A DNA stretch of 57,747 bases. Origin: Actinomycetota bacterium (lineage in GTDB: Bacteria; Actinomycetota; Coriobacteriia; Anaerosomatales; JAENZW01). The stretch is from positions 1 through 57,747 of the forward strand of contig JAENZW010000002.1 of the NCBI GenBank assembly GCA_016841065.1. The letters are read 5' to 3'. The notes under the pieces were generated by a model. The model ran no database searches, was not told the DNA's origin, and was given only the letters and a program-made list of their open reading frames with translations. The first letter of the stretch is position 1, and every line of letters begins with the position of its first letter. Shown piece after piece: positions 269 through 34,812 of the stretch. Position numbers and translations under genes: made by a program.

Positions 269-820
269 TCAGTCGGCATCCTCGTAGGTTCGGATCGACT
301 CGATGATCCGCGCGGTCCCGTCGTCGGTCTTGCACGGTTTCGAAGTGACGCCCTTCTCGGCAAGGACGATCAGAACCGCCTCGATCGCGGCCTGAAGCGC
401 GTTCTCGACTTCGGGGGTGAGTGTGGTGACCCACTGTTCGATTCGGCCGACCTGAACACCGATGCACTCCGCGTGCACCACGACTCCGGTGAGCTCGGCT
501 GCTTCGAGCACGTTCACGAACTTCATGTCGTGCAGTGAGTGCATGACCTGGTTCGGAGCGATGTCCTCCGGTGAGAGCCGCACGATGGTTCCGGCCGGGT
601 GTCCAGTCCGGTCAACAGCATCGACAACCAGCACGAAGTTGCGATCGCGAAGCAGGTGGAGCATTCCGAGTCCCATCGTGCCGGCGTCGAGGAGCTCCAC
701 GGTGTCTGGGAACTGGAACGCGGACATGAGCAGCTCGACCACGCGGACGCCGACACCCTCGTCCCCCATGAGGGGGTTGCCGATCCCCAGTACAAGAATC
801 GGGGCGACATTGTTCCGCAT
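269..820 (-). CDS. [NiFe]-hydrogenase maturation endopeptidase (HyaD/HybD/HupD family)
   Basis: ILVLGIGNPLMGDEGVGVRVVELL is the family N-terminal motif. Start trimmed to ATG 818-820 (MRNNVAPILVLGIGN). Located in a hydrogenase gene neighbourhood. Confidence 0.85.
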   Translation of the reverse strand: MRNNVAPILVLGIGNPLMGDEGVGVRVVELLMSAFQFPDTVELLDAGTMGLGMLHLLRDRNFVLVVDAVDRTGHPAGTIVRLSPEDIAPNQVMHSLHDMKFVNVLEAAELTGVVVHAECIGVQVGRIEQWVTTLTPEVENALQAAIEAVLIVLAEKGVTSKPCKTDDGTARIIESIRTYEDAD

Positions 821-851
821 TGCGGGTTCTCCTCTGGGACGTGGGAGCCGT

Positions 852-878
852 GAGATGCGCGCCGATCGAGCGCATCTC
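852..878 (-). other. perfect 9-bp stem hairpin between the radical SAM gene and the protease gene
   Basis: GAGATGCGC-N9-GCGCATCTC seen directly, lying between stop 919 and start 820. No U-tract, so it is an intercistronic structure rather than a clear terminator. Confidence 0.4.
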
Positions 879-918
879 ATCGTATCGAAATGCTACTCGC
901 CGGGGAACGACGCAGTCT

Positions 919-2244
919 CTAGCAAGCCGCCAGCTCCGGCTCCCTGAAGTCGGTGCAGGTCTCACCCTCGAGAAGCAACATGCGCTCCTCTGTCGGCAAG
1001 GCTTCGCGCGCAGCATCTCTCTTGTCGTTTGAGGTCGCGAGAGTCTCGCGCATCATGACCATCAGGAGGTAGCGCCCCTTCTCGGTCAGCGTGATCTCCT
1101 CATCGTTGTGGGATGCGATACCACCAGCCGCGTGCATGAAGGCGATCTCCGCCGCCAGCCCTCGCTCGACCGGCACACCGAAATCGGCTTCGAAACGCTT
1201 CCTGTCCAGACGCATGCCGAAGAGGTCGGTCACGAAGCGATAGCGCATGAGGGCCTTCCTGTTGTACTGGCGTCCTCGTGTGGCGACGCCCATGTGACCC
1301 TGTGAGACTCGCCTCTCGTAGTCTTTCAGGGAGTGCGTGTTTCCGTATATCCGTCCGCCGAGGAACGACAGCGCTCCAGAGCCAACCCCGACGTACTCCT
1401 CGTAGTCAACGATGTACTCGTCGATCATGGCGTCCGTGTCGCGAGAATAGGTCCAGGCGGAAGCCGGAGAGAATGTGTCGCTGAGTCCTTCGGCGATGAT
1501 TCTGTAGTAGCGTGTTTCGCGGCTGAAATCGATCGGCCCGACAGCCCGCTCCATCTCGACTCGTGACTTGCGAGAAGCCATGAGCGGGTAGAAGGTCGTC
1601 TGGTTCGTGCCGGTGGCCTTCAGAAGTTCGATATCGCGCCAGAGCATGTCCTCCGTCTGGCTCGGGAAGTTGAAGATCATGTCCACATTCAGAGAGTGGA
1701 AGGCGCCTTCGACCGATTTCACCTTCTCGAACAACTCCTCGCCACCGCCGTACTTGTCGAGGCGATCCATCTGCTTCAGGAGCGTGTCCTCGAAGCTCTG
1801 CACACCTACCGACAGACGCTGCACCCGTTCGGACAGCGCATCGATGAGTTCGGGGCCGAGATGGTTCGGGCTTGTTTCGCAGGACACCTCCTGCACAGAG
1901 AAGAGCGTCTTCGCGAGATCGATGGTTGCGCAGAGTTCGTCCAGGAGGATCGTCGGGGTACCCCCGCCGATATACAGCGAGGGGAAGTCATACCCTAGTC
2001 CGGCGACGATTCGCATCTCCTCCCTCAGCGAGCGGAAGTAGGCGCGTGCGCGGTCTTCGCTGTACAGGAACCTGTTGAACGAGCAGTACAGGCAGAGGCG
2101 CTCACAGAACGGTACGTGCGCGTAGAGGACGTATCCGTGTCCGGGTTCGGGATCCGGCAGGTGTTCGAGTTCGCACGGTGATTCCGCGAGATAGTAACGA
2201 TTGAGCACGTGCAACGCGCTCGAAATCATTCGCTCAGATAGCAT
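919..2244 (-). CDS. radical SAM protein, HemN/HemW-like (oxygen-independent coproporphyrinogen-III oxidase family)
   Basis: 441 aa. CxxxCxxC motif in YAHVPFCERLCLYCSFNRF, GGGTP motif (YIGGGTPT), and a HemN-like C-terminal region. Confidence 0.75.
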   Translation of the reverse strand: MLSERMISSALHVLNRYYLAESPCELEHLPDPEPGHGYVLYAHVPFCERLCLYCSFNRFLYSEDRARAYFRSLREEMRIVAGLGYDFPSLYIGGGTPTILLDELCATIDLAKTLFSVQEVSCETSPNHLGPELIDALSERVQRLSVGVQSFEDTLLKQMDRLDKYGGGEELFEKVKSVEGAFHSLNVDMIFNFPSQTEDMLWRDIELLKATGTNQTTFYPLMASRKSRVEMERAVGPIDFSRETRYYRIIAEGLSDTFSPASAWTYSRDTDAMIDEYIVDYEEYVGVGSGALSFLGGRIYGNTHSLKDYERRVSQGHMGVATRGRQYNRKALMRYRFVTDLFGMRLDRKRFEADFGVPVERGLAAEIAFMHAAGGIASHNDEEITLTEKGRYLLMVMMRETLATSNDKRDAAREALPTEERMLLLEGETCTDFREPELAAC

Positions 2245-2520: not shown

Positions 2521-3198
2521 CTAGTGCGCCTTGCCTCCCGCAGGATTGCCTTCCTTGTCGAAGTGCAGGCCCTCGCTCTCCTTCCAAGCGAAGATGAGCC
2601 CGGAAGGCGCGAAGCCCTCGACGTTGGCCAGGTAGGCGTGGATGGCCGTGAACACGATGAACACCCACATGAGGAAGTAGTGGATGACACGCATGTACAT
2701 GTACCCACCGACCCAGCCCGCACCGGCACTGAAGAAGCTCCAGTCCATCGTCGGACCCCAGATCGAGAAGCCCGTGTACGCCATGACGAACGTCAGCGGT
2801 ACCGTGGCGATGTACGCGATCTTCTGCAGGACGCCGTACTTCGCGCCCAGCGGGTGGTCCTTCTTCATGAACAGGTAGTACTTGATCCAGGCGAGGAACT
2901 GGTGACGGTTCGCCTTCTGTGGCAGCCAGTTCTTGATGTCCGTGTCTACCTCGCGCGAGCCGAGAGACACAGCTGACTTCACGAAGAAGGCGGCAATGAT
3001 CCGGAACGTGAGGTTGATGATGAGCACGAACATGAAGAAGAAGTGCATGCCACGAGCGACACCCATGAACCCGGCGAAGAAGGGGTAGTGGATGTAGAAG
3101 CCCGAGAAGGCGAGCGACACCATTGCGATGAGGTTGATCCAGTGGGTGAGGACGAACACCATCGGGTGTGCCTCACGGTAGTGCGCGGGGTGCGCCAT
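2521..3198 (-). CDS. Ni/Fe-hydrogenase b-type cytochrome subunit (HyaC/HupC family)
   Basis: 225 aa with four predicted TM helices. N-terminus HPMVFVLTHWINLIAMVSLAFSGFYIHYP is typical of the family. It immediately follows the large subunit gene. Confidence 0.85.
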   Translation of the reverse strand: MAHPAHYREAHPMVFVLTHWINLIAMVSLAFSGFYIHYPFFAGFMGVARGMHFFFMFVLIINLTFRIIAAFFVKSAVSLGSREVDTDIKNWLPQKANRHQFLAWIKYYLFMKKDHPLGAKYGVLQKIAYIATVPLTFVMAYTGFSIWGPTMDWSFFSAGAGWVGGYMYMRVIHYFLMWVFIVFTAIHAYLANVEGFAPSGLIFAWKESEGLHFDKEGNPAGGKAH

Positions 3199-3199
3199 C

Positions 3200-4981
3200 T
3201 TACCTCACCCCCATCGGCTTGGTGTTGACGAACGCTTCCTTGCCCGTTTTCGGTTCAATCACGTGAACCGCACAGCCGATTCAAGGATCGAAGCTGCGGA
3301 CGATCCTGACGACCTCCATGGGCCGTTCGGGGTCCATAACGGGTGCGCCGATCAAGGACTCCTCGATCGGTCCGCGAACCGCGTCGGCACCTTCCTTGTC
3401 GCGAGGGGCGATGTCCCATGTGGTGGGCGCGACGACCTGGTAGTTCGAGAGCTTGCCGCCCTCGACGGTCATCCAATGCGCGACGGAGCCGCGCGGAGCC
3501 TCCCACATTCCGACACCCTTGCCGTCGGACACGGAGTGCGGCTCAAACCACTTGACGTCGCCCTCTTTGACATAGCCGACGAGTTCGAGCACGGAAGCAA
3601 CCGAGAGATCCGCGACGAAGGCGGTCTCAAGATTCCGTGCCGCCACCCGTCCAAGCAGCGACTGAAGCGCGGCGAGCGGCACGGGGCCCGTCAGGCCCAG
3701 TTCGCTGCCAAGCGCGCCCAGCGTCAGGTCGATGAGCTGCTTGGGCGTGCGGACGCCATCCGGCCACTGCATTTCTGTGTCGCGCAGATAGGCGACGAGC
3801 ATGCGTGACAGCGGGCCGACCTCCATGGGGAGATCGTCGTAGCGAACCGCTTTGCCCCATGAGTACTTGCCGTTCACGTCGTAATCGACATATTTGGCGC
3901 TGGTCTCACCGTCGGACGGATTGAGACCATCGGCGGAGTCGTACCACGACCGGGACACGTACTCCATGACCTTCGAGGGATCAGGATCCTCGAGTCCCGG
4001 AATCACGCCTGCGGCGAGATCCAGACCCTTGATGACGCCACCCGGGAGGTAGCGTTTCGTGAGTTCGAAGCTCGGATCGTTGAAGACTCCCCACGCCAGG
4101 TAGTTCTTGCATCCTGCACCGTAGGCGGCCGAAGAGACGATGCCCTCATTCGGGTAGTCTTTCGCGTAATACGGAGCGATGGCCAGCGTGTCCGGGATCA
4201 TGACGTTGTTGACGAAGTCCACGACCTTCATGAGTCGGTACAGCACGTCGTCGAGCTTCTCCTCAGTGGGAACGAAGGTCGTGCCGCCGTTGACCGATGT
4301 CATGAAGTGCGGGAACTTGCCTCCCATGATGCCGATGATCTGCGACGCTTCGGCTTGCACCTGGAGCGCCTCAAGATAGTGAGCGACGGCGATCAAGTGA
4401 AGCTCGGCTGGCATCTCGGATGGATACGCGGGATGTCCTAGCCAACCGTTGGTGAAGATCGACAGCCGGTTGTTGTTCAGCCCGGCGTTGATGAACTCGC
4501 CAACGCGCTTCTGTACGGCGCCGAAGTCGGTTACACGCACGTCGAAGCCGGCAGGGGCGTACTTCCCCGCAACGGCAAGCGCAAGATCGTAGGTCGCCGC
4601 GATATCGGCAGACAAGGCCTTGAGCGGGTCGACGTAGTCGAGCGCTGCCAGGGTGTAGAACCACAACACGTGACTGTGGAGGTACTGTGCACACTCGATG
4701 ATGTTGCGTACGAGTCGCGCCCCGTTCGGGATGGTGAGATCGTACGTGTCTTCGGCCGACATCGTGGATGCGTGGCCGTGAGAGATCGGGCAGACACCAC
4801 AGATGCGCTGCGACACATAGAACGCATCCTGGGGACGGCGGCCCTTGAGCACTGTCTCCATGCCTCGGTAGAGGGTGCCCGATACCCAGGCGTCGGATAC
4901 TTTGCTGTCAGCACCGATCTCCACCTCGACGCGTAGGTGACCCTCGATCCGGGTCAGTGGATCGACAACTACACGTGCCAT
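3200..4981 (-). CDS. group-1 [NiFeSe]-hydrogenase large subunit, with selenocysteine encoded by the in-frame TGA at 3281-3283
   Basis: N-terminal RIEGHLRVEV and RICGVCPISH motifs. The ORF track stops at ...RSFDP-TGA. Same-frame read-through gives U-IGCAVH-VIEPKTGKEAFVNTKPMGVR-TAA, restoring DP(U)xxCxxH plus a cleavable tail. A hairpin follows 10 nt after the TGA. Confidence 0.85.
3251..3270 (-). promoter_or_regulatory. SECIS-like stem-loop for Sec insertion
   Basis: Minus-strand RNA: UGA-AUCGGCUGUG-CGGUUCA-CGUGAU-UGAACCG. Perfect 7-bp stem, 6-nt loop containing GU, stem beginning 10 nt after the UGA. Confidence 0.65.
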
Positions 4982-6216
4982 TACTTACCGCCTCCCTTCT
5001 TGCGATCGTGTGCCCGCACGTCCTCATACGGAGCGCCGCCGTCCATGCGTCCGGCTACCTTCATGCCGATTCCGTGGACGAGGAGCGCGCCCGCGGCGAC
5101 CGCGCCGACTGCGGCGCCGATGGTGGAGGGCTGGAATGTCGTGCCAGCGATGGGCAGGTCGGGCATGCGATTCAGGAACGGTGCACCGACGTCCACCCAG
5201 TTGCCGCCAGGCGACAACGGATTCGCGTTGCCGCACCCGATGCAGGGAGCACCAGATTCGACGCACCAAGATGCCCCGTCGTTCCAGCGCACGATGGGAC
5301 AGTTCGTGAACGTCTGCGGTCCCTTGCAGCCGACGGCATACAGGCAGTAGCCCTTGGCTTCCTCAGCGGAACCGAATTCGTACACGAACTCGCCGTTCTC
5401 GAAGTGCCCGCGACGTGGGCAGTTGTCGTGAATGGTCTGGCCGAATATGAGACTCGGCCGGCCGAAGTCGTCGAGCTTATCGAGTATCGCGCCGCTCTCA
5501 AGCTGGCCGAGGAGCAGGACGTCGATAACCATGGCGACGACCCATTCGGGATTGACCGGGCACGTCGGCAGGTTGATGACCGGCGTCGCGATCCCCTCGT
5601 CCTTGCAGAACTGCTGAATGCCTTTGCCTTCTGCCGGATTCGGACGGGCAGCGACCCAACCACCGTCGACCGCACAAGAGCCAACGGCGACGATGGCGGC
5701 GGCGTTCTTGCATATCTCAGGCAGTTCTTCGGTCTGAGACTTGCCGGCGATGCGAAGTGCATTGCCGCCGAAGCCGGTCATGACCGTGCCTTCGAAGATG
5801 AGGATGTAGCCACCCTCCTCGAGCATCGTCTTGATTGCGCCCTCAGCCGTGAGCTCGGGCTTCGCCTCAACGACTCCTTCCTGATAGCCAGGAATCATTT
5901 CGGGGCCGCCCTGAGCCATCATGACCGTCTCGAAGTAGTTGAGTGAGAGAAGATCCAGGACGACAGTTGCGACGTCCGGAGTCATTCCCTGCGCCATCGA
6001 TTCAGTGCAACCAGTGCATGCACCGCCGTTGATCCATAGGGCGGGTGCTCTGGGTGTGAGAGCTGCCGCCTCGACGGCTGCGGCTATCTGCGGAATCGCG
6101 GTCTCAGCGAGACCCATGAGTGTAGCGATCGAGCCGCAGAACTTGAGGAAATCCCGACGTGTCACGCCTCGAGCCGCTAGCTGCGAGTACAACGCGTCGT
6201 GGTTCCCATGTGCCAT
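4981..6216 (-). CDS. group-1 [NiFe(Se)]-hydrogenase small subunit, Tat-exported, with C-terminal TM anchor
   Basis: Twin-arginine signal GVTRRDFLKFCGS. GGACTGCTESM and other Fe-S cysteine motifs. C-terminal hydrophobic helix IGAAVGAVAAGALLVHGI. Start set at ATG 6214-6216 (MAHGN), 7 nt after AAGGAGG. TAATG overlap with the large subunit start. Confidence 0.9.
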   Translation of the reverse strand: MAHGNHDALYSQLAARGVTRRDFLKFCGSIATLMGLAETAIPQIAAAVEAAALTPRAPALWINGGACTGCTESMAQGMTPDVATVVLDLLSLNYFETVMMAQGGPEMIPGYQEGVVEAKPELTAEGAIKTMLEEGGYILIFEGTVMTGFGGNALRIAGKSQTEELPEICKNAAAIVAVGSCAVDGGWVAARPNPAEGKGIQQFCKDEGIATPVINLPTCPVNPEWVVAMVIDVLLLGQLESGAILDKLDDFGRPSLIFGQTIHDNCPRRGHFENGEFVYEFGSAEEAKGYCLYAVGCKGPQTFTNCPIVRWNDGASWCVESGAPCIGCGNANPLSPGGNWVDVGAPFLNRMPDLPIAGTTFQPSTIGAAVGAVAAGALLVHGIGMKVAGRMDGGAPYEDVRAHDRKKGGGK

Positions 6217-7056
6217 GCGATACACCTCCTTGTGGTTTGCGATCGGTACGTGTGGTTTGACGTCAGCCGCGCAGCAGTTCCGATGAGCGGCTGTGTGTGT
6301 GACGCGATCAGCCTCCTTCCAGGCAGCTCAGGGGCTTGCATGTGCCAAAGGGAAGTCCTCGATGCAGGCATCGACCGGAGATGCATGCATCGCCCAAGGC
6401 CGAGTGAGATCTGCCGGGGAATCCGCGGCAGAGGGGAGTTCCGGCGAGTCGGAGACTCCGGATGGGGAGCGAGCGAGGGAAGGGTGAGGCAGCGTCACAG
6501 ACGTGACGCTGCGCAAAACGCATGGTCCCCCAAGAACCGCGCATTGTTCGCATGAAGCCGCTGTACCCCTCGTCTTCGTCCCAGGCACAATCGGACGAGC
6601 GGAGACTTCTTACAGCTGGTCATTCTACATACATCCCCCGTCGCGCGCCATGTCGGCGGGGACTCATTTGGCTGCTGAGGGGAACACTCACACACAGAGG
6701 CACAGATCCTCGTGCCTATGTGGGTATTGGAGGTGTTCGCACCGTGAAACATCGACAGGTAGAGAACGGAAGAGAAGCACTCGGCGGGGCGCCGGACACG
6801 CCTCTTCCAGTGGATGCGCCGGAGGACTTGCGCGAGAAATGCGCGAACGACAGGGATGCGCTGTCGCCGAGGCAGACGGCAGACTGTGCTGGCACAGACC
6901 TGGCCGAGTTGTATGAGAACGAGGAAGACGGGGGGTCATAGAAGCGCGAAACTGGCGCACATGGGCAATCATCGGAGAGGAACGGGCACATGTGCGAAGA
7001 ATCACTCAATAGATAGTGTTGTGCACGCATTCTAGCGACTCAAGGAACGGGTGCGA

Positions 7057-7343: not shown

Positions 7344-8042
7344 CTACACCCTGAATATGCGTTCGAGAAGATCGGGCAGATCCTCCAGGGTCCCGCGGTA
7401 GGTAGCGTGCGGTGAAGGCGCTTCGCCGACGCTGAAGGTCGCCATTCCCGAGTCGACGGCCGACATGTCGAGAATGGGATCGTCGCCGATCATGAGACAA
7501 TCCCGCGGCTCGACTCCGATCATCTGCGCGGTCTCGTCGAAGTAGGCCCGAAGTGGTTTGCATGCGTGCATGCATTCGTAGGCAGTGATGGCGTGGGCGC
7601 GCGAGGGGTCTATTCCTGCCCAACTGAGACGATGTTCGACGGCGCGCAGCGGGAAGATAGGGTTGGTAGCGATCGCGATGCGCAGCCCGATTTCCTCGGC
7701 GGCAGCAAGGGCCTCCTCCGCACCTGCGACCGGACCCGTTCCGCCTCCGAGACTGGGGAAGCGCTCTTCGTAGAAGCGGGAGAAGACGTCCGCATTCGCA
7801 TCGATGTCGACACCGGTGAGGCGCAGGTATTCTCGGTGGAAGACATCCTTGTTCGTGACACCGGGGTGGGGACGGATCATGGCTTCGGTAGCGTCGTTGA
7901 GGGCCTGCATGGCGTTCTCCACCTGTCCTGCAGGGACGAGCTGGGCGACGGTCTCTGCAAGCGCGTCGAAGTAGCGGCGCAGGAAAGCACCCATGTCTAT
8001 GTCCAAGAGAGTGCCATCGAGATCGAAGAGAATGCCCTGCAT
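7344..8042 (-). CDS. HAD-superfamily hydrolase (subfamily IA-like phosphatase)
   Basis: N-terminal MQGILFDLDGTLLD (DxDGT motif I). Later ...ATNP... and MIGDDPILD motifs. Confidence 0.8.
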   Translation of the reverse strand: MQGILFDLDGTLLDIDMGAFLRRYFDALAETVAQLVPAGQVENAMQALNDATEAMIRPHPGVTNKDVFHREYLRLTGVDIDANADVFSRFYEERFPSLGGGTGPVAGAEEALAAAEEIGLRIAIATNPIFPLRAVEHRLSWAGIDPSRAHAITAYECMHACKPLRAYFDETAQMIGVEPRDCLMIGDDPILDMSAVDSGMATFSVGEAPSPHATYRGTLEDLPDLLERIFRV

Positions 8043-8250
8043 GTGGCCTCCGAGGGGTAGCGTCGAGAACGTCCTATCCTAGCACGGAGTGGGCCGGGAG
8101 ACCGTTTGACTGTGGCATACCTGGCTGGGTATGCTTCGTATCGGTTGCCCCGATACCCCTATGGGCATACCGCTTGCTTTCAACTCACACGAGAACCTGT
8201 TCACAAGCGATGCCGGATATGCTTCTACATGCGAGAGGACACCGAGTCTC

Positions 8251-11200
8251 ATGGCTGCTGTTACCGAAAGAGTCGAAACCCGTCTTCGGGATGTGTTCGG
8301 GGATAGGGTGAGGACCGACCGGGTCGAACGCAAGATGTACTCGTTCGACATCGGCGCGATGCCTTCTCTCGTCAGGCCGTTCGTTCCGGCGGGCATCGCT
8401 GGTGCCGTCGTCCGGCCGAAGAGCGAAGACGAGATCGTCGCACTCATGAACCTTGCCCGGGAGGAGCGTCTCAAGATCGTCCCGAGAAGCTGGGCGACCT
8501 CCGGCTACGGTGGTGTCCTGCCTACTACCGGGGCGGTCGTGGCGGACATGTCGGGGATGCAGAAGATCCTTTCGGCAAATCAGAAGGGAATGACCGTCAC
8601 GGTACAGGCCGCGACGATCTGGGAGCAGATCGAGCGCGAACTCGAGAAGGATGGTCTGGCCCTCAGGTTGTACCCGTCGTCGTCGCCGAGTTCGGGCGCA
8701 GCGGGTTGGCTGGCGCAAGGCGGCGCAGGCTTCGGCTCGTATGAATATGGAACCATCAAGGAGAACGTTGTTTCGGCCCGAGTAGTGCTTCCGAGCGGTG
8801 AAGTGAAGGTCTTTGACGGCAAGGAGCTCCTTGAGCGAGTAGCCGATGCTGAGGGCATAACCGGCATCATCACGGAGCTGACCATCAGGATTCGGAACCT
8901 CGAACCGGAGGTCCATCGCGCAATCTCCTTCGAAGATGCTGGCGCTCTGGCCTCTGCCCTGAAGGCAATCTCTGAAGAGCATCTCCCAATCTGGTCGATC
9001 ACGTTCTTGAACCCCGAGTCCATCCGACTCAAGAAGGAACTGCCGCACCGGCACGGTCATCCATACGAGATGGCGCACGATCACTTCGATCCGGTGCTCC
9101 CTGAGAAGTACATTGCGATGATCGCGTATCCGGAGTCGCGGCGCGACGCGATCGACATGGCTCTCACCGCGATTGCGGCGTCTACCGGTGGCGAGGAACT
9201 CTCCGCCGAAGCGGCCGAGCATGAATGGGAACTGAGGTTCTCGCCCATGCGCCTCAAGCGGATCGGTCCCTCGCTGGTTCCGACGGAAGTCGTCGTGCCG
9301 CTGGCCTCTCTTGCATCCGTGCTGCAGGAGATCGACCGCAAGATCGATCAGCCGTTCATTCTCGAGGGAATGCACGCGAAAGGCGACAAGGTCGTTCTTC
9401 TCGGCTTCGTGCCTCATGACGAGCGAAGTCTCGCGTTCAACCTCGCATTCGCTCTGTCGCTTTCGGTCATCAAGATCGCCAAGCAGAACGGTGGCTCGGC
9501 GTACTCCACCGGTCTCTACTTCCGGCGTGAGGCGGAGTCCGTTCTCGGCAAGGACAAGTTGCGAGCACTGTCCGCCTACAAGGCCGAGGTGGATCCGAAG
9601 GGGTTCATGAACCCCGGCAAGGTACTCGGGTCTGGTGTGATCGACCTGCTGATGGGAACGGCTGGCGCATTGGAGCCGATAGTGCGACCGATTGCGAACG
9701 CCGCGAAGCCGCCGCAGCGTCACGAGGACTTCTCGAAGGAGCGGAATGGTGTTCCGGGGGAAGTTGCATTCATGGCCTACGCCTGTGCGCGGTGCGGCTA
9801 CTGCGTCCCAACATGCGAGCAGTACTCCGGAAGGGGTTGGGAGTCGCATTCGCCGCGCGGCAAGTACGCGTTCCTGCGCGAAGTGATCGAGGGGCGCGAG
9901 GAGTGGAATCGGAAGGCTATAGACACATTCCTCGTGTGCACGACATGCGAGGTGTGCAATACCCGCTGCCAGCTCCAGCTTCCTGTGGAACACAACTGGA
10001 TGGCCATGCGCGGAAAGCTGATCAACGAGGACAAGCGGGGCACGTTCCCGCCCTTTGAGATGATGGCCGCGTCGCTACGCGGTGAACGGGATATCTGGGC
10101 GGGCAAGGCTGAGAATCGCGACGCGTGGGTGCCCGAGGACGTTGCAGAGAAGATCCCGGAGCAGTCGGACATCCTGTACTTCGCGGGCTGCACTGCCAGT
10201 TTCGTCGAGACTGACATCGCAGAGGCGAGCATTCGCCTGCTCCAGGACTCCGGGTATAGCGTCGGATACATGGGCAAGGACGAGGCTTGTTGTGGCATTC
10301 CCATGAAGGTTGCCGGCAAGTGGGACCTGTTCGAGGAGATATTCGAGCACAACACATCTGAGGCCCGAAAGCGGGGTGCCAAGACGATCGTCACCTCGTG
10401 TCCTGCGTGCGGCCTCGTGTGGAAGGAGCTCTACGCGAACATCGCCGCCGAGCGCGGCGAGGAGTACGAGTTCGAGGTGAAGCACTACTCGGAACTCGTG
10501 GCAGACGCGATTGCTGAAGGCAAGCTGGAGCTGAAGGACAGCCCGTTCGACGGCAGTACGGTCACGTTCCACGATTCGTGTCACATGGGTCGGGCTCAGG
10601 GCAACTACGAGCCACCCCGCGACATGCTCAAAGCCATTCCCGGCGTCGACTTCGTCGAGATGGAGCACAATCGCGAGGAGGGTCTGTGCTGCGGCTCCGT
10701 GCTGACGCTCGTCGGCGAGATGCCCGTGGCGCCCGTTCTCGGCAAGGAGCGTCTGCAGGAGGCTGTCGACGCCGGGGCGGATACGGTCGTCGCACTGTGT
10801 CCGTGCTGCCAGGTGCAGCTGAGGGACAGCAACATCAAGAACGACCTGGGGCTCAAGATCGACGACCTCTCGCGCGTAGTGGCTGAGGCTGCCGGCTATG
10901 ACATACCGGAGTCGACAGAGTACTCGATGTACATGTGGAGCTACTTCGAGAAGTTCATCATCCTTCTGGAACCGAAGAACATGGCGACGTTCATGGGCCG
11001 GATCTTCCCGCAGATGATGGATGCGATGCCTTTCGGTATGAAGCCGATGATGAAGTCGATGAAGTACGTTCCGGGCGGGCTCGCCATGATGAACAAGATG
11101 ATGCCGGTGCTGTTCCCGATGCTTGCGCCGGGTGTTCTCGGGAAGGTCATGCCGGATATGGTTCGCGAGGTTGAGGACTACATCGGCGAGATGCCCGCAG

Positions 11201-11325
11201 ACATGCAGGATCTGATGCCAGACCTTCTGCCGAAGACGATGGAGTCGCTTATGCCCACGTACCTTCCGCAGCTGATCCCGCACCTCACACCGCTTATGAT
11301 CGACTACATCAGAACCGAGATGTAG
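8251..11325 (+). CDS. fusion oxidoreductase: FAD-linked oxidase (GlcD/Dld-like) + 2x[4Fe-4S] + two CCG cysteine-rich domains + Met-rich C-terminal tail; candidate D-lactate/2-hydroxyacid dehydrogenase
   Basis: FAD_binding_4-like VVRPKSEDEIVALMNLA...IVPRSWATSGYGG. CARCGYCVPTCEQY and CTTCEVCNTRCQ ferredoxin motifs. CCG motifs (FAGCTASF, CCGIPM, FHDSCHMGR, LCCGS). Start trimmed to ATG 8251 (MAAVTERVE). Confidence 0.8.
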   Translation: MAAVTERVETRLRDVFGDRVRTDRVERKMYSFDIGAMPSLVRPFVPAGIAGAVVRPKSEDEIVALMNLAREERLKIVPRSWATSGYGGVLPTTGAVVADMSGMQKILSANQKGMTVTVQAATIWEQIERELEKDGLALRLYPSSSPSSGAAGWLAQGGAGFGSYEYGTIKENVVSARVVLPSGEVKVFDGKELLERVADAEGITGIITELTIRIRNLEPEVHRAISFEDAGALASALKAISEEHLPIWSITFLNPESIRLKKELPHRHGHPYEMAHDHFDPVLPEKYIAMIAYPESRRDAIDMALTAIAASTGGEELSAEAAEHEWELRFSPMRLKRIGPSLVPTEVVVPLASLASVLQEIDRKIDQPFILEGMHAKGDKVVLLGFVPHDERSLAFNLAFALSLSVIKIAKQNGGSAYSTGLYFRREAESVLGKDKLRALSAYKAEVDPKGFMNPGKVLGSGVIDLLMGTAGALEPIVRPIANAAKPPQRHEDFSKERNGVPGEVAFMAYACARCGYCVPTCEQYSGRGWESHSPRGKYAFLREVIEGREEWNRKAIDTFLVCTTCEVCNTRCQLQLPVEHNWMAMRGKLINEDKRGTFPPFEMMAASLRGERDIWAGKAENRDAWVPEDVAEKIPEQSDILYFAGCTASFVETDIAEASIRLLQDSGYSVGYMGKDEACCGIPMKVAGKWDLFEEIFEHNTSEARKRGAKTIVTSCPACGLVWKELYANIAAERGEEYEFEVKHYSELVADAIAEGKLELKDSPFDGSTVTFHDSCHMGRAQGNYEPPRDMLKAIPGVDFVEMEHNREEGLCCGSVLTLVGEMPVAPVLGKERLQEAVDAGADTVVALCPCCQVQLRDSNIKNDLGLKIDDLSRVVAEAAGYDIPESTEYSMYMWSYFEKFIILLEPKNMATFMGRIFPQMMDAMPFGMKPMMKSMKYVPGGLAMMNKMMPVLFPMLAPGVLGKVMPDMVREVEDYIGEMPADMQDLMPDLLPKTMESLMPTYLPQLIPHLTPLMIDYIRTEM

Positions 11326-11396: not shown

Positions 11397-11513
11397 ATGG
11401 TGAAGGCGATTGCGGAAGGTCTGCCCTGGGAATGTGACTGCGGGCGCTGGACTGTGACGATCCAAGCGCAAGTGTGTGTCAAGTCACAGTGTGGAGGGGC
11501 CGATATCACAGAC

Positions 11514-12212
11514 ATGAGAACGAACACTTCAAGAGAACAGTCCGTTGCGAAACTCCGCGCCATTCCGATGTTCGCCGATCTCGGCGCGGAGGACATCGAA
11601 ACGTTCGCGGATATGGTGCAATACCGCACATACCCGAAGAACGCGTTCATCGTGAATCAGAACGAGGCCGGTTCGGCCATGTACCTGCTGGTGTCCGGCC
11701 GCGTCAAGGTCTCGCTTGCGTCGCCTGACGGTAAGGAACTGGCGTTGAACTACTTGGAGGCGCCGGCGCATTTCGGAGAGATGAGTCTGGTCGATGCAGA
11801 GCCACGTTCCGCTGACGTCATCGCAGTGACGGACGTCGAGTTGTTCGCGCTGGACGCCAAGGATCTCTCTTCGGCCATCCAGATCAATCCGCGACTGGCG
11901 CTGTCGCTGATAGCGACTCTCTCGCGTAGGCTGCGACACACCATTGCGCGCCTCGAAGACATGGCGTTCCATGACGCGACCCATCGCGTTATGCGGGTCG
12001 TGCTGAATGTGGCGACCGCGAGCTACGAAACACGTGGCGTTCCGGTCATCCAGGGACTCACGCACTACGACATGGCGACCCTCGCAGGCACGTCACGGGA
12101 GACGGCGAGCAGGATTATCTCGAACCTCGCCAAGGAGGGCGTGCTTGCCACCAAGGGTCGCAAGATAGTCGTAGATCTCATCAAGCTGCGGGAGCGTCTC
12201 GAGGGTCAGTAG
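11514..12212 (+). CDS. Crp/Fnr family transcriptional regulator
   Basis: cNMP-binding-type domain (LRAIPMFADLGAEDIETF..., FGEMSLVD) plus C-terminal HTH (THYDMATLAGTSRETASRIISNL). Start at ATG 11514, downstream of GTGGAGGGG. Confidence 0.85.
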   Translation: MRTNTSREQSVAKLRAIPMFADLGAEDIETFADMVQYRTYPKNAFIVNQNEAGSAMYLLVSGRVKVSLASPDGKELALNYLEAPAHFGEMSLVDAEPRSADVIAVTDVELFALDAKDLSSAIQINPRLALSLIATLSRRLRHTIARLEDMAFHDATHRVMRVVLNVATASYETRGVPVIQGLTHYDMATLAGTSRETASRIISNLAKEGVLATKGRKIVVDLIKLRERLEGQ

Positions 12213-12571
12213 GATCTCACCAGTGACGCTCCGCCACGTCTGTCTTTCCATCACGGACACTGTTGTTGTCGTACATCGCTTCTTCATCAACGACGTTGAC
12301 GATGGATCTGGACGGCGAGTCAACCGATCTGGCGGTCGACTACGAGGATGTGATCCTGTCGAAGGAGGCTCAGTCCCTCGTTCCGCTTGCGGTCCGGGAA
12401 TCCCCACGACTGCAACCGTGCGGGCGACTCGATTGCCTGGCAGGCTGCGCAGACGTCGCCGCGACGGGTGATGAGGACCAGACATTCGGTTTAGGGCCAG
12501 CGGTTTCGCGCGCGCTTTCCGGGGGGAAATATCGAGTGTTCCTATGCCCATCACACCTGCTGGAGGCGCGC

Positions 12572-12799
12572 ATGAAGGACTTCACTGCCGAGGATCTGGC
12601 TACCTTTGACGGCAAGAGCGGGAAGCCCGCGTACGTTGCGTACAAGGGTGTTGTCTACGACGTGACAGAGAGCGCCATGTGGGGAGACGGCGATCACGAG
12701 GGCGTCCACGCGGCGGGACGAGATCTGACGAGTGATCATGATGACGCGCCGCACGACGTCTATGTGACCGACTTCCCGGAAGTCGGGCGACTCGTCTAG
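12572..12799 (+). CDS. cytochrome b5-like heme/steroid-binding domain protein
   Basis: MKDFTAEDLATFDGKSGKPAYVAYKGVVYDVTES..W.DGDHEGVHAAGRDLT is typical of small bacterial cyt-b5-like proteins. ATG 12572 is preceded by CTGGAGG. Confidence 0.7.
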   Translation: MKDFTAEDLATFDGKSGKPAYVAYKGVVYDVTESAMWGDGDHEGVHAAGRDLTSDHDDAPHDVYVTDFPEVGRLV

Positions 12800-12810
12800 G
12801 GCGCGACATG

Positions 12811-14109
12811 CTAGGCCTTCTCGAAGATTGCGACCGTCTCGATGTGATACGTCTGCGGAAAGAGGTCGACCGGTTGGGCTCGCACTAGCGAATAGCCGGC
12901 CTCCAGGAGCGCCGAAGCGTCCCGCGCGAGTGTCGTTGGGTCGCATGACACGTACGCGATCTTCGAGGGCCGTGCCGCGACAACTGAGACGAGCGCCTGG
13001 TCTCCGAGGCCAGCTCGCGGCGGGTCCACGACTACGAGATCCATCCGACCGAGATCGCCGATAATCCTGCCGGCGTCTCCGGGGTGGATCTCAACGAAGC
13101 CATCGACACCCTCGAGGTTCCGTTCGAGGTCGCCGAGAGCGTATTTGGATGACTCGATCGCCGCGACCTCGCCAGCGCGCTGGGCGAGGGGAACGGTGAA
13201 CGTGCCGACGCCTGCATAGGCGTCAAGGACCCTGTCCGTGCCGTCACAGGCGATCGACTCGATGACGTTCGATACGAGGTGCTCGGCCGCCTTGGTGTTT
13301 ACCTGGAAGAACGACGGTGCGGACACCGCCATCCTGTGCTCCCCGAGCCGCTCGGACCAAACCGGTTTGCCCGCGAGGATTTCCACCTTGACGATCTTCC
13401 GGACGGCCTCGTCCTTCTTCGACAGAACGCGAACGACGCTGTCAGCACCTGTCGCATCGATAATGGTCTTCGCGGCGGCATGGCGTGGGAAGGCACCCGG
13501 AGGGGTCCAGATCGCAATCTGAAGGCTGTTCGTTCGTGCCGCAGCGCGAATAGTGACGCGGCTGATCTCGAGATCAGAGGATCCCGAGAGGTAGCGCAGG
13601 GCTCCTTGCAGCGACCTCGGGAGCGCACGAACCTTCTTCGGCAGGAGCATACATTCTGCTATGGCGATGACGTCGGACGAACCGGCGCGAGCGAAGCCGA
13701 GCACCAAGCGACCGTGGTCGCTGGCGGCATGCAGCTCTATCTTGTTGCGGTAGCCATAGTCGGCGTCCGATGCTATGCAGTCGAGCACCACCGGGTTGCC
13801 GATCGAACCGATTCTGGCCAGCGCGTCGCGAACAGCGTTCGTCTTCGCTTCGCGCTGCGCCTGGGTAGCGACATGCTGCCACTGGCACCCTCCACAGACG
13901 CCGAAGTAGGGGCACGGCGGCTGAACGCGGTCTGGAGACGGTTCTAGAATCTCACCGAGGGTTGCGCGGAGGTAACGGGATTGCTCGGAGATGACTGTCG
14001 CCTCAACAACGTCTCCGGGGCACGTCGCGGGTATGAATACCACGCGACCGTCGGGCGAGTGGGCCACACCATCGCCGCCGTATGCGATGCTTTCGATGTG
14101 GAGTCGCAC
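12811..14109 (-). CDS. 23S rRNA (uracil-C5)-methyltransferase, RlmD/RumA family
   Basis: N-terminal TRAM-like domain. Fe-S motif CPYFGVCGGCQWQH. SAM-methyltransferase core (VLDAYAGVGTFTV) and catalytic C-terminal region (YVSCDPTTLARD). Confidence 0.8.
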   Translation of the reverse strand: MRLHIESIAYGGDGVAHSPDGRVVFIPATCPGDVVEATVISEQSRYLRATLGEILEPSPDRVQPPCPYFGVCGGCQWQHVATQAQREAKTNAVRDALARIGSIGNPVVLDCIASDADYGYRNKIELHAASDHGRLVLGFARAGSSDVIAIAECMLLPKKVRALPRSLQGALRYLSGSSDLEISRVTIRAAARTNSLQIAIWTPPGAFPRHAAAKTIIDATGADSVVRVLSKKDEAVRKIVKVEILAGKPVWSERLGEHRMAVSAPSFFQVNTKAAEHLVSNVIESIACDGTDRVLDAYAGVGTFTVPLAQRAGEVAAIESSKYALGDLERNLEGVDGFVEIHPGDAGRIIGDLGRMDLVVVDPPRAGLGDQALVSVVAARPSKIAYVSCDPTTLARDASALLEAGYSLVRAQPVDLFPQTYHIETVAIFEKA

Positions 14110-14302
14110 GAGGTGCCTTTCGATAGGAGTGCCTACGGTGGGCGACAGCGCCTATACTACCCTGTGACGGTGCATGCACGAGGACGGGGCCCTTCAGCCA
14201 CCGGTCCAGGGTGCCGATACCAGCATCGTGCAGGGGTTTCGCGGCTCTCGCAACGTTTGCGTGGAAATCATCTGGTGGAGTCTCGCGAGGAGGGACCAGC
14301 CT

Positions 14303-16006
14303 GTGGCTGAGAAGAAGGTGCTGATAGTCCACGAGGACGCTGACCTCATGGAGAGGGTTCGTTCGGGGTTGTCATCGTCTGGATCGGACATCGAGGTCAT
14401 TAGTGCGCTATCAGGTCCGCGGGCCATAGGCATGGTTGGCGCCCAGAGACCGGACATCATTGTCGTCGACGGTGAGCTAGAGGGCATGGATGGCTATGCT
14501 CTGACGCAGCAGATCAAGTCCGACCCTGCTGCAGCGGACATTCCGATTATCATCCTGTCGCTCCAGCCGAACGAGATGACAGCGCTGCGTGCGCGCCAGG
14601 CTGGTGCTGCGGCTCATCTTCCGGCTGCCGGACCTCCAGCCCAGCTAGTCGAGAAGATCCTCTCGTTGGTGAATGTCGAGGCTTCTCCGGCAGCGACGGG
14701 ACCCGCGGTTGCGGGTGACTACGGAACGCCGCAAGAAGTCCGCGCATCTGTCGGGGCCGCAGAGACTCCCCAGGCGCCCGAGGCGTCCACTCCTGCGCCC
14801 GATTCGTCGTATGGAGTGATGCAGCCGGTTCCAGATACTCGGCCGCCTGCAACCCCAACACAGACGGCCGCTCCCCACGAGCCTGTCGGACCGACTGCCG
14901 AAGGGCGTATCGGATCGGACGCGCCGAAGACGGGGGAGTTCCCGCACATCGACGACCTGCTTCGGCTTATGCTCGACCGCGGCGGTTCGGACCTGCACAT
15001 CACCGTTGGAAGCGCTCCGGGAATCCGTCAGCGCGGCGAGATCATTCCTATTGAGAATCTTCGGCCGTTGATGCCTCGCGACACGCAGGAGATGATTCTG
15101 AACCTCCTGTCCGAGGAACAGCGCAAGCGCTTCGAGACAGAGCTGGAACTGGACTTCGCGTACAGCATTCCCGGGGTATCCAGATTCCGCGCGAACGTGT
15201 TCCAGCAGCGCAACTCAATGGGCGCTGTCTTCCGCGTTATTCCAATCAAGATTCCGACGATCGAGGAACTTGCCCTGCCGAAGGTCTGCCGCTACCTCGC
15301 GGACAGGCCGCGTGGTCTCGTTCTCGTGACGGGTCCGACCGGGTCGGGAAAGTCGACGACACTAGCCGCGATGGTGGACCACATCAACGAGGCGCGAGCG
15401 TGTCACATCATCACTCTCGAGGACCCCATCGAGTTCATGCACAAGAACAAGAAGGCCTACGTGAACCAGCGCGAGATCGGGGAGGACACGCACTCGTTCG
15501 CTTCCGCACTCAGGCGCGTCCTGCGTCAGGACCCCGACGTGATATTGGTGGGCGAGCTGCGTGACCTGGAGACGATCTCGGCGGCGATCACTGCGGCCGA
15601 GACCGGGCATCTGGTGCTGGCGACTCTGCACACTACCGGCGGTCCGGCTACTGTCGATCGCGTCATCGATGTGTTTCCCCCGCATCAGCAGCAGCAGGTC
15701 CGAATGCAACTCTCGACGACGCTCGAGGGTGTGCTCTCCCAGGTGCTCATGCGTACCACCGACGGGCGCAGTCGGATTCTGGCCATGGAGATCATGCTCG
15801 GTATACCGGCGATTCAGAACCTGATTCGCGAGGGCAAGACTCACCAGATGGCTACGATCATCCAGGGCGGCGCCTCGCTGGGGATGCAGACACTCGACCA
15901 GCACCTCAAGGCGCTGCTGCAGGCGGGCAAGATCACGTTCGAAGAGGCGATCGGCAAGGCGATGAACCCGCGCGAACTCGCGCAGATGGTGGGACGCAAG
16001 ATCTAG
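14303..16006 (+). CDS. response-regulator receiver domain fused to a PilT-type (type IV pilus retraction family) hexameric ATPase
   Basis: REC: KKVLIVHEDADL...PDIIVVDGELEGMDGY. About 110 aa Pro/Ala/Thr-rich linker. PilT core: GPTGSGKSTT Walker A, ILVGELRD, TGHLVLATLHT. Start at GTG 14303, 8 nt after GAGGAGGG. Confidence 0.8.
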   Translation: MAEKKVLIVHEDADLMERVRSGLSSSGSDIEVISALSGPRAIGMVGAQRPDIIVVDGELEGMDGYALTQQIKSDPAAADIPIIILSLQPNEMTALRARQAGAAAHLPAAGPPAQLVEKILSLVNVEASPAATGPAVAGDYGTPQEVRASVGAAETPQAPEASTPAPDSSYGVMQPVPDTRPPATPTQTAAPHEPVGPTAEGRIGSDAPKTGEFPHIDDLLRLMLDRGGSDLHITVGSAPGIRQRGEIIPIENLRPLMPRDTQEMILNLLSEEQRKRFETELELDFAYSIPGVSRFRANVFQQRNSMGAVFRVIPIKIPTIEELALPKVCRYLADRPRGLVLVTGPTGSGKSTTLAAMVDHINEARACHIITLEDPIEFMHKNKKAYVNQREIGEDTHSFASALRRVLRQDPDVILVGELRDLETISAAITAAETGHLVLATLHTTGGPATVDRVIDVFPPHQQQQVRMQLSTTLEGVLSQVLMRTTDGRSRILAMEIMLGIPAIQNLIREGKTHQMATIIQGGASLGMQTLDQHLKALLQAGKITFEEAIGKAMNPRELAQMVGRKI

Positions 16007-26653: not shown

Positions 26654-27676
26654 ATGTTCTTTCGCATCATGGATCGGTCACGCATGCCCGATTTGGTGCG
26701 TGGCCTGGCCGCAGAGTACGAAGTCATCGGTCCGATAGCCAAGGACGGCAAGTTCGTCTTCGGCAAGGTAGAAGATCCGTCGGACCTTCGGCTCGACTAC
26801 GACACGACGCTATTGCCGCCGAAGAAGCTGTTCTTCCCGCCGGAAGAACAGATGATGCGGTTTCGTGTGGCGGACAACGAGGTCGTTGACGACGAGGTGT
26901 ATGCCGCGCCCCGTGTGGTGTTCGGTCTCCACTCGTGCGACATCAACGGGCTCTTGCTCATGGACAACGTCTTCATGCGCGACTACGAAGACCCCTATTA
27001 CAGGGCGCGGCGGGAATCGACGCTGCTCGTGGGCGTTTCGTGCACGTCGTCCGAGACGTGTTTCTGCAACGCATGGGGGACCGACGAGGTCCACTGGGGG
27101 TTCGATATCTTCCTGACGGATCTGGGCGACCGGTATTTCGTATCCGTACAGTCCGTCAAGGGCGCCGAGCTTCTCGATCGCCATGTCGAGTCTCGCGAGA
27201 TCACGTCGGAGGATACCGAGGAGTTCCAGTCGGTTACGGCGGCTTTCAAGGACTCGTTCTCAGAGACGCTGGACACCTCTCAACTACCCCTTCTGCTCGA
27301 TGCGAAGTTCAACAGCCCAATGTGGGATGAGCTGGGCGACAGGTGCCTGTCTTGCGGGGCGTGCTCCATGGTATGTCCGACGTGCTACTGCTTCGACGTC
27401 GTTGATCGGCTGGCTCCAGATCAGAAGAGCGGCGCTCGCGAGCGGCGTTGGGACTCGTGTCAGTTCGGAGAGTTCGCAGCGGTCGCGCACGGCCAGAACT
27501 TTCGGGAGTCCCGCGCGAGCCGAGTGAAGTACCGGTACTACCACAAGCAGTGGGGATACCTCTCGAAGTTCGAGCGCGTGCTGTGCGTCGGCTGTGGCCG
27601 TTGCCAGCGTGCATGTCTCGCGGGGATCAGCCCGCGGGAAGTCGTGAAGGCGCTCGAGACGGGGGGCGTGCAGTGA
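26654..27676 (+). CDS. group-3b [NiFe]-hydrogenase beta subunit (AsrA/HydB-like Fe-S protein)
   Basis: 340 aa. CLSCGACSMVCPTCYCF and CVGCGRCQRACLAGI clusters. First gene of a four-gene beta-gamma-delta-alpha set. Confidence 0.7.
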   Translation: MFFRIMDRSRMPDLVRGLAAEYEVIGPIAKDGKFVFGKVEDPSDLRLDYDTTLLPPKKLFFPPEEQMMRFRVADNEVVDDEVYAAPRVVFGLHSCDINGLLLMDNVFMRDYEDPYYRARRESTLLVGVSCTSSETCFCNAWGTDEVHWGFDIFLTDLGDRYFVSVQSVKGAELLDRHVESREITSEDTEEFQSVTAAFKDSFSETLDTSQLPLLLDAKFNSPMWDELGDRCLSCGACSMVCPTCYCFDVVDRLAPDQKSGARERRWDSCQFGEFAAVAHGQNFRESRASRVKYRYYHKQWGYLSKFERVLCVGCGRCQRACLAGISPREVVKALETGGVQ

Positions 27677-28530: not shown

Positions 28531-29274
28531 ATGGCGCCTCGAGTAGTCGTGATCGGACTCGCGAGTGACTTCGGATGCCAGGTACAGATGACCAACATCG
28601 AGGATCACCTTCTCGAGGTCCTTGGGTTGATCGACCTGACCTACTGGCAGCTTGCGAGCAGCGGGCATATGCCCGACGAATACGATGTCGCGATCGTCGA
28701 GGGCGCGGCGACGACGCAAGAGCACCTCGATCTGCTACGCAGGGTGCGGGAGACTGCGGGTGTCGTCATTGCCATCGGATCTTGCGCGGTCACGGGGGGC
28801 ATATCCGCAATCGCAAACGCAGCTGGCATCGAGGAGGGCTTCGCGCTCGTCTACGGCGAGCGTGGACGGGTTGCGCTCGGCCGAGTCGCCCCCGCGTCCG
28901 TCGTTTCGGTCATCGATGTCGACTACATCGTTCCAGGGTGTCCGATCGACACGGATGAGTTCCTACACGTGCTTTCGCGCGCCCTACACGGACTCAGGGA
29001 CAAGACGCCGAGGCAGCCGATGTGCTTCGCATGCAAGACCCGGGAGAACGTCTGCTTCTTCGAGAAGGGTCAGCTCTGCCTGGGTGTCGTCACTCGTTCC
29101 GGATGTCATGCCCGATGCGTCACGCTGGGTCGTCCGTGCACTGGTTGCCGAGGAATCGCTCCCGAAGCCAACCTCCCTGCAGCGCGGATCGTCTTCGAGG
29201 ACCACGGGTTCGATGCCGAAAGAGCGCTGTCGTATATCAGTCTGTACAACACCAATGAAGAGGTGGTCCTCTGA
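28531..29274 (+). CDS. group-3b [NiFe]-hydrogenase small (delta) subunit
   Basis: VVVIGLASDFGCQV, IAIGSCAVTGG, VPGCPI motifs of cytoplasmic hydrogenase small subunits, followed by additional Cys clusters. Confidence 0.75.
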   Translation: MAPRVVVIGLASDFGCQVQMTNIEDHLLEVLGLIDLTYWQLASSGHMPDEYDVAIVEGAATTQEHLDLLRRVRETAGVVIAIGSCAVTGGISAIANAAGIEEGFALVYGERGRVALGRVAPASVVSVIDVDYIVPGCPIDTDEFLHVLSRALHGLRDKTPRQPMCFACKTRENVCFFEKGQLCLGVVTRSGCHARCVTLGRPCTGCRGIAPEANLPAARIVFEDHGFDAERALSYISLYNTNEEVVL

Positions 29275-34803: not shown

Positions 34804-34812
34804 GGGGTGACG

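Follow-up and report, generated by a model that had tools for sequence, protein, structure and literature searches.

The window analysed here is a 57,747-nucleotide (nt) stretch of contig JAENZW010000002.1 from an Actinomycetota bacterium (assembly GCA_016841065.1), with a G+C content of 61.9%. Anaerosoma tenue and Parvivirga hydrogeniphila, at 66.6% and 67.7% G+C, were rejected as its source. The minus strand of the window carries an uptake hydrogenase operon in which the large-subunit gene is interrupted by an in-frame TGA. It is highly probable that the product of this gene (4981-3200, minus strand) is the large subunit of a [NiFeSe] hydrogenase, 593 residues long, with selenocysteine (Sec) decoded from the UGA at residue 567 by the mechanism proposed below. 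Recoding of the TGA to Sec is strongly supported by the comparison of homologous loci. Sec567 is the terminal nickel ligand, a position held by Cys in ordinary [NiFe] enzymes.

The open reading frame (ORF) of the large subunit starts at 4981 and, as called, runs to ...VVRIVRSFDP, where it is closed by TGA at 3283-3281, so the caller's version ends at 3281. The minus-strand codons around the site are GAT CCT TGA ATC GGC TGT GCG GTT CAC, which read directly as D-P-stop-I-G-C-A-V-H. Past the TGA, the same frame continues through IGCAVH and the 20-residue VIEPKTGKEAFVNTKPMGVR to a TAA at 3202-3200. The UGA occupies the first Cys position of the C-terminal DPCxxCxx(H/R) motif, and the frame is open through CxxH. 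An earlier inspection of this DNA (the sequence-only reading) had reported the TGA at 3281-3283 and the in-frame IGCAVH with its tail to the TAA at 3200-3202; all coordinates and letters were confirmed. It had also held that the ORF caller truncated the gene and that Sec stands at the first Cys of DPCxxCxxH. The former agrees with a constrained frame of 26 further codons and with the cut at ...SFDP in relatives, and the latter is backed by the conservation of TGA and tail and by a downstream hairpin, all described below. The N-terminal counterpart RxCGxCxxxH is intact as RICGVCPISH, with nearly all motif positions invariant in alignment A1, and the Pfam family NiFeSe_Hases covers 3284-4981 (E 2.6e-141). 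Reassignment of TGA in the genetic code was ruled out, because TGA is the normal stop of 17 other genes within the window. Compared with its relatives, the window large subunit has 25-45 extra residues, which are accounted for in a 24-sequence alignment by six short private insertions at residues 139-147, 168-171, 273-281, 322-326, 428-433 and 532-534.

The read-through protein, with U written as C, was searched against approximately 5.8 billion proteins, and the best 120 clusters (54-78% identity) were examined. The annotated protein ends exactly at ...SFDP in 119 of these 120 clusters, and the named ones are metagenome-assembled genomes (MAGs) of Coriobacteriia or Anaerosomatales. The closest relatives retrieved, P0002 (78%; Coriobacteriia MAG GCA_029858605.1), P0004 (70%) and P0066 (OW818687.1, GCA_942493275.1, locus L095, a single contig of 2.5 Mb), have the same TGA, tail and gene order. 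Relatives that truly end at ...FDP had been named in the sequence-only reading as the observation that would speak against recoding. The ends found in the databases are instead due to the same TGA, which is followed by the conserved CxxH tail and hairpin. The sole full read-through among the best 120 clusters is P0104 (L094:454-2088), which is Cys-type (TGT) with a tail resembling those of the Sec clade. It possibly arose by reversion from Sec to Cys, with loss of the selenocysteine insertion sequence (SECIS).

A homologue scan with one genome per GTDB species provided 80 loci, in which the spread of the TGA through a whole clade can be seen directly. The codon is TGA in 18 of the 18 nearest species loci (L001-L018, 51-61% identity), which come from environmental MAGs of Coriobacteriia, Anaerosomatales and 'Actinomycetes', including Coriobacteriaceae bacterium EMTCatB1 and an Anaerosomatales MAG (L018). 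TGA is also present in L043, L083-L085, L089/L090, L092 and L095. The 58 more distant orthologues, none above 50% identity, use TGC or TGT at this codon, with L043 as the sole exception among the distant loci. These TGC/TGT loci belong to Eggerthella, Adlercreutzia, Raoultibacter, Rubneribacter, Slackia and other Eggerthellaceae, together with a Nitrospirota/Deltaproteobacteria group. After the TGA, the frame of the 18 nearest loci follows the pattern [IVM]GC[AG]V[HQ]V...TGK...GV[KMR] and then a stop. In 21 of 23 Sec loci, the stretch read through after the TGA measures 26 codons. Over the six codons past the TGA, pairs of loci differ on average by 6% at the first, 9% at the second and 44% at the third codon position. 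Low differences at positions 1 and 2 with high differences at position 3 indicate a translated sequence under purifying selection. Together with the conserved TGA, this constraint excludes a sequencing error, a pseudogene and a lineage-specific nonsense mutation.

Two members of the TGA set deviate from the common form. One Sec-clade locus (L010:7549-7606) has Gln in place of the motif His (DPU-VGC-GVQ), as either a real variant or an assembly error. Cleavage by the maturation protease normally takes place after the final His of the motif. The other, L043:7521-7600 (CAZNUM010000024.1, uncultured bacterium), is a separate TGA/Sec variant, DPU-LGC-GVH, with a similar hairpin past the UGA. It lies inside a different, group-1b-like clade, and its best PDB match is Desulfovibrio vulgaris Miyazaki (507 bits), so that a further Sec lineage exists within group 1.

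A SECIS-like hairpin follows the UGA in the window (Table 1). It begins 11 nt past the UGA and has a stem of 7 base pairs (bp), with G22 and U23 of the loop counted from the U of the UGA. In the SECIS of E. coli fdhF, the bases that contact SelB are G23 and U24. The bacterial SECIS consensus places a G as the apical loop's first or second base (PMC13582414), and the window hairpin has its G at an allowed loop position. A hairpin of 6-8 bp at the same place, with G at loop position 1 or 2, is present in 20 of the 20 TGA loci analysed. The two outer stem pairs vary as CGG...CCG, GCG...CGC and GGG...CCC, and compensatory swaps are observed directly at stem columns 20/39 and 21/38, where 4 and 7 cells, respectively, are changed on both sides. 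These outer-pair changes also alter the protein (A to G, P to R), which tolerates the substitutions. In four loci the pairing of the hairpin is displaced by one base (GUCCAC/GUGGAC, loop GUG or GUU). A lower stem that would pair the UGA region with GGCAAGG (in the window) was rejected, having no double-sided changes and many broken cells.

The hairpin is weak or mostly absent in the 58 Cys orthologues. The mean minimum free energy of the 27-nt segment is -9.9 kcal/mol in Sec loci (n=20) compared with -4.2 kcal/mol in Cys orthologues (n=58; Mann-Whitney p = 2.4e-9). The Cys-type P0104/L094 (TGT) and the Sec-type L018 serve as a control, as both encode the same VHVVEPKTGK, with codons GUA CAC GUC GUC GAG in the former and GUU CAC GUG GUU GAA in the latter. 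The P0104/L094 region folds at just -4.9 kcal/mol, without a stable hairpin. This comparative evidence, including the control, shows that selection acts on the hairpin as RNA and that it does not merely arise from encoding the peptide.

Genes of the Sec machinery are directly linked to the operon in relatives. In L017, selA, selB, a tRNA-Sec gene (anticodon TCA) and selD lie divergently beside a TGA-type operon (L017:43-4309). A database search with the L017 SelA reached two further Coriobacteriia contigs, L089/L090 and L092, through P0124 and P0129. In L089/L090 (4001-5676) and L092 (4001-5708), selA and tRNA-Sec directly adjoin the operon of small subunit, large subunit and cytochrome b, and the large subunits again have the TGA, the tail and the hairpin. 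This arrangement hints that the hydrogenase is a principal selenoprotein of the genomes with adjoining sel genes. A local tblastn search with the SelA, SelB and SelD of L017 against all loci and the window found matches in L017 only. For P0196, P0219 and P0195, proteins also found in the SelA search, no tie to the assemblies of the TGA loci was established. In the accessible part of the supplementary tables on EMTCatB1, sel genes appear under 'tca_' tags only and none under the paper's EMTCatB1 1c/1d tags.

Several points weigh against decoding of the UGA as Sec. No selA, selB, selD or tRNA-Sec was found within the 57.7-kb window, whose two tRNAs are those for Arg and Ala. The fold of the single window sequence is unremarkable against shuffles (z = -0.76). 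No Rfam family matched the hairpin at gathering or permissive thresholds; this is weak negative evidence, because the bacterial SECIS models of Rfam are lineage-specific. RNAalifold gave no consensus structure on a 58-nt alignment, probably because four sequences are in the register shifted by one base, and explicit pair counts and per-locus folds were used as comparative tests instead. Part of the hairpin conservation is at the protein level, since the hairpin overlaps strongly conserved codons. Incorporation of selenium across the clade is a prediction from sequence, and decoding as Cys of the tRNA(ReC) type has been raised as an inherent limit of this kind of analysis (PMC13582414). Under such decoding, the UGA would be recoded to Cys via a SelB-dependent tRNA(ReC)-type allo-tRNA or Cys-tRNA(Sec), and the enzyme would have an ordinary [NiFe] site. 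We consider this very unlikely. L017, L089/L090 and L092 have tRNA-SeC (TCA) beside selA, which encodes Sec synthase, and L017 also has selD. Moreover, a costly recoding to Cys would be pointless, as TGC or TGT is one mutation away and is used in the sister clade.

Still less probable is that the TGA is a true stop, whether the gene is a pseudogene, has acquired a nonsense mutation or contains an error of sequencing or assembly; the truncated subunit would then be non-functional, without two of its metal ligands. Gene callers and the NCBI annotation do end the protein at ...SFDP, and the lack of sel genes within the window fits a stop. However, more than 24 independent assemblies, produced by different studies, share this TGA, as do 119 of 120 protein clusters. 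The 26 codons downstream are open, conserved in length and constrained by codon position, and the operon is otherwise intact, so that the comparative data effectively refute a true stop. The large subunit could also be split, with one chain stopping at the TGA and the CxxH peptide made separately and assembled in trans, as in VhuA/VhuU. A precedent exists in Methanococcus voltae, where VhuU is a short C-terminal peptide that contains Sec (PMC13188914). This is the least probable of the explanations weighed and deserves hardly any credence here. It does not fit the locus because the UGA itself occupies the ligand position, which a peptide starting after it would lack, and because neither a start codon nor a ribosome-binding site lies between the TGA and CxxH. 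The hairpin at SECIS distance from the UGA also speaks against it.

With Sec at residue 567 as the preferred interpretation, the following sequence of events is proposed. The hairpin would act as a bacterial SECIS and recruit SelB-GTP-Sec-tRNA(Sec), by which Sec567 would be inserted at the UGA. Translation would then run 26 more codons via C570 and H573 to the UAA at 3202-3200. After assembly of the Ni-Fe(CN)2CO site, a HyaD/HybD-type protease would remove the 20-residue tail after His573. Cleavage after this His is established for the enzyme family and is predicted here by analogy. The large subunit would be exported together with the small subunit, which carries a twin-arginine translocation (Tat) signal, and the complex would be held at the membrane by the C-terminal helix of the small subunit and the b-type cytochrome. 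The cytochrome b would pass electrons from H2 to the quinone pool. The codon, the conserved frame, the hairpin with its compensatory changes, the spread through the clade and the linkage to sel genes in relatives are observed here; that selenium is incorporated, where the tail is cut, how the complex lies in the membrane and that it is coupled to quinone are deductions from gene and protein sequences.

Table 1. Coordinates of the hydrogenase operon, its recoding signals and the second hydrogenase region in the window.
Feature	Position	Strand	Basis and remarks
Hydrogenase small subunit, putative start	4981..6225	-	Pfam Oxidored_q6 and NiFe_hyd_SSU_C; TIGR00391 283.8 bits
Hydrogenase large subunit, restored	3200..4981	-	593 codons plus TAA, Sec567; translation, Pfam, 1FRF_L alignment
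N-terminal Ni/Fe-binding motif RICGVCPISH, residues 59-68	4778..4807	-	Translation; alignment A1
C-terminal Ni/Fe-binding motif D-P-U-I-G-C-A-V-H	3263..3289	-	Sequence; kept in at least 24 TGA loci
UGA codon probably read as Sec, residue 567	3281..3283	-	TGA at the homologous codon in relatives
SECIS-like hairpin	3251..3270	-	CGGUUCA 3270-3264, loop CGUGAU 3263-3258, UGAACCG 3257-3251; fold, covariation
20-residue C-terminal extension VIEPKTGKEAFVNTKPMGVR	3203..3262	-	Sequence; removal after His573 predicted
Hydrogenase b-type cytochrome	2521..3198	-	Pfam Ni_hydr_CYTB; NCBIfam TIGR02125 96 bits, below cut-off 121.5
HemN-like radical SAM protein (coproporphyrinogen III oxidase family)	919..2244	-	NF006385 490.5 bits, above cut-off 355; Pfam Radical_SAM
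HyaD/HybD-type maturation endopeptidase	269..880	-	Pfam HycI; TIGR00072 125 bits, above cut-off
Four-subunit group-3b-like (sulfhydrogenase-type) hydrogenase	26654-30536	+	Fer4_22 beta, NAD/FeS gamma, delta small, alpha large
Complete Rnf complex (rnfC, D, G, E, A, B)	30621-35730	+	Directly downstream of the group-3b-like hydrogenase

The other genes of the operon agree with this scheme in several respects. In this uncultured member of the Coriobacteriia, the locus combines genes for the small and large subunits, the b-type cytochrome and the maturation protease. The small subunit has the twin-arginine signal TRRDFLKF and a C-terminal hydrophobic helix, both seen in its translation. The large-subunit extension occurs together with a HyaD/HybD-type protease, and the suggestion in the sequence-only reading that this protease could remove the tail is in keeping with the presence of both (the protease at 125 bits with TIGR00072), the cut itself being a prediction. 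The true start of the protease is probably the ATG at 820. A single G (3199) separates the restored TAA from the ATG of cytochrome b (3198-3196), and a purine-rich, Shine-Dalgarno-like GGGGTGAGG, serving cytochrome b, lies at 3211-3203 within the large-subunit tail. Since the stop is 1 nt before the ATG and the Shine-Dalgarno-like sequence is in the tail, translation of cytochrome b is probably coupled to successful Sec read-through; the earlier claim of a coupled start, with the stop one base before the ATG, was upheld. The small subunit also has a fourth Cys for the medial cluster (WC rather than WP) in SWCVESGAPCIGC. This Cys is present in 24 of 24 Sec and 55 of 55 Cys small subunits, and it was therefore ruled out as a Sec-specific trait.

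The closest structures are those of group 1b. The best match among solved structures is D. fructosivorans (409 bits), followed by D. vulgaris Miyazaki and D. gigas; the three group 1b enzymes span 409-368 bits. Lower scores were obtained with A. vinosum (357 bits), E. coli Hyd-2 (approximately 350 bits) and E. coli Hyd-1 (approximately 312 bits). The classical [NiFeSe] structures gave 312 bits for D. vulgaris Hildenborough and 275 bits for Dm. baculatum, each in two stretches. Against the HysA model NF045518, the window protein scored 393.5 bits (in two stretches), against a cut-off of 780; by this curated score, the window enzyme is not of the classical periplasmic HysA type (HydDB 1a). Nor does the locus encode a soluble or lipoprotein heterodimer without cytochrome b or membrane-anchored small subunit, which is the HysA arrangement. 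The remark in the sequence-only reading that the architecture is unlike classical soluble [NiFeSe] enzymes, with a cytochrome b and a Tat-exported small subunit anchored by a transmembrane helix, was borne out.

A neighbour-joining tree was built from 79 large subunits, none of them from group 1a. The window and L001-L018 form one Sec clade, which is sister to a Cys-type clade of Eggerthellaceae (Coriobacteriia), the taxa that give HydDB group 1i its name, and L043 stands apart as a Sec variant inside the group-1b-like clade. The tree indicates that the Sec form is not a one-off but a large monophyletic Sec clade of environmental Coriobacteriia. The enzyme of Eggerthella sinensis gives the same ranking of PDB matches as the window enzyme. 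In HydDB, group 1i bears the label 'Coriobacteria-type (putative)', and [NiFeSe] variants are indicated for groups 1a, 3a and 3c only (PMC5037454). In the first OPB41/Anaerosomatales isolates, a cluster of small subunit, large subunit, cytochrome b and protease was classed as 1i by HydDB, in addition to a group 3b enzyme, and selenium is never mentioned (PMC9686372). From the tree, these isolate clusters and the TGA-type L018 of an Anaerosomatales MAG, the window enzyme is a putative member of HydDB group 1i.

HysAB of D. vulgaris Hildenborough and Desulfomicrobium baculatum (group 1a; PDB 5JSU, 2WPN, 1CC1) likewise uses UGA for Sec at the first Cys of DPCxxCxxH. It shares with the window enzyme the Ni-Fe large and FeS small subunits, the C-terminal extension, the dedicated protease and the fourth medial-cluster Cys, which predicts three [4Fe-4S] clusters. 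The window enzyme is nevertheless distant from HysAB, has a cytochrome b and a membrane-anchored small subunit, and comes from a Coriobacteriia host rather than a sulfate reducer. The Cys-type group 1i enzymes of Eggerthellaceae have the same operon, class, Tat signal and medial Cys and a similar tail (VH..EP.TGK....P[WM]GV[KR]), whereas they use TGC or TGT, mostly lack the hairpin and are 42-50% identical to the window enzyme. The group 1b enzymes of D. fructosivorans, D. vulgaris Miyazaki and D. gigas (1FRF, 1H2A, 2FRV) align collinearly from residue 4 to the tail, through DPCxxCxxH and including VHVIEP(K/E)T, but have four Cys ligands, are soluble and are linked to cytochrome c3. The Sec enzymes of methanogen group 3 (Fru, Vhu) and the group 4 variants found in silico (PMC13582414) also have UGA-encoded Sec as a Ni-Fe ligand and annotations cut at the UGA, and that work relied similarly on SECIS elements with G in the apical loop and on co-occurrence of sel genes. 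They represent other hydrogenase groups and complexes; Sec lies in the N-terminal motif in group 4, and the archaeal SECIS is in the 3' untranslated region.

The window encodes a second, group-3b-like hydrogenase, whose large subunit ends in DPCLSCSVH-TAG, with Cys (TGC) at the corresponding position and no extension after the His. It is an internal Cys control in the same genome. RnfC, known as a selenoprotein from some bacteria, shows no evident in-frame TGA extension in the adjacent Rnf complex of the window. Within the uptake operon, the HemN-like gene sits between cytochrome b and the protease, a position kept in the closest relatives L083-L085. Relatives carry genes of haem synthesis (ferrochelatase, UROD, amino-oxidase) just past the operon, and the HemN-like gene with these neighbours suggests a haem-supply module for cytochrome b. 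The neighbourhood upstream of the operon (8131-11325 on the plus strand, 7344-8042 on the minus strand, and 11397-16006) is common to L083, L085 and L095. Its conserved genes encode a 1064-residue FAD-oxidase/CCG-domain Fe-S oxidoreductase, a HAD hydrolase, a Crp-family regulator, a TRAM methyltransferase and a response-regulator-T2SSE ATPase. No internal TGA interrupts the gene of the FAD/CCG protein here, although the protein is similar to Fe-S oxidoreductases of the GlpC type, a family whose members are selenoproteins in some bacteria.

The recoding mechanism, the position of Sec and the problem of mis-annotation are already well known. A 2026 review places [NiFeSe] hydrogenases exclusively in sulfate reducers and methanogens (PMC13188914), and a survey of the same year lists Sec variants in groups 1 and 3 only, with group 4 newly added (PMC13582414). 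In a search of the open-access literature, with subscription literature outside its scope, no description of Coriobacteriia, OPB41 or group 1i as [NiFeSe] was found beyond HydDB. The lineage and architecture, a group 1 [NiFeSe] enzyme in a new subgroup, host and membrane context, therefore appear to be unreported. The wider proposal, for and against which we see about equal weight, is that membrane-bound, cytochrome-b-linked, quinone-reducing [NiFeSe] uptake hydrogenases form a large and widespread clade in non-sulfate-reducing Actinomycetota (Coriobacteriia, including Anaerosomatales/OPB41), separate from group 1a. Because gene callers truncate its members systematically, the clade would be missing from hydrogenase and selenoproteome classifications. 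As sel genes adjoin the operon in some lineages, the hydrogenase is suggested to be a main reason why those genomes keep Sec decoding.

Fast production of H2 and recovery from exposure to O2 are the properties for which [NiFeSe] hydrogenases are valued. The biocathode bacterium EMTCatB1 (L012, BDLO01000001.1) carries a TGA-type enzyme. Its 'NiFe hydrogenase' (hyaA, hyaB, hyaC) was in the top 10% of transcripts on an electromethanogenic cathode, in a report that does not mention selenium (PMC7943316). It is plausible that this cathode-expressed hydrogenase is locus L012, in which case the cathode catalyst of EMTCatB1 may be a selenoenzyme. If the UGA is indeed read as Sec, hundreds of database entries for uptake hydrogenases of Coriobacteriia would be mis-annotated and lack two metal ligands. 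With their shared operon, the two sister clades, one with Sec and one with Cys, would constitute a natural experiment on the role of Sec in a respiratory hydrogenase, and H2 oxidation by OPB41/Anaerosomatales-type bacteria of the subsurface and sediments would depend on selenium.

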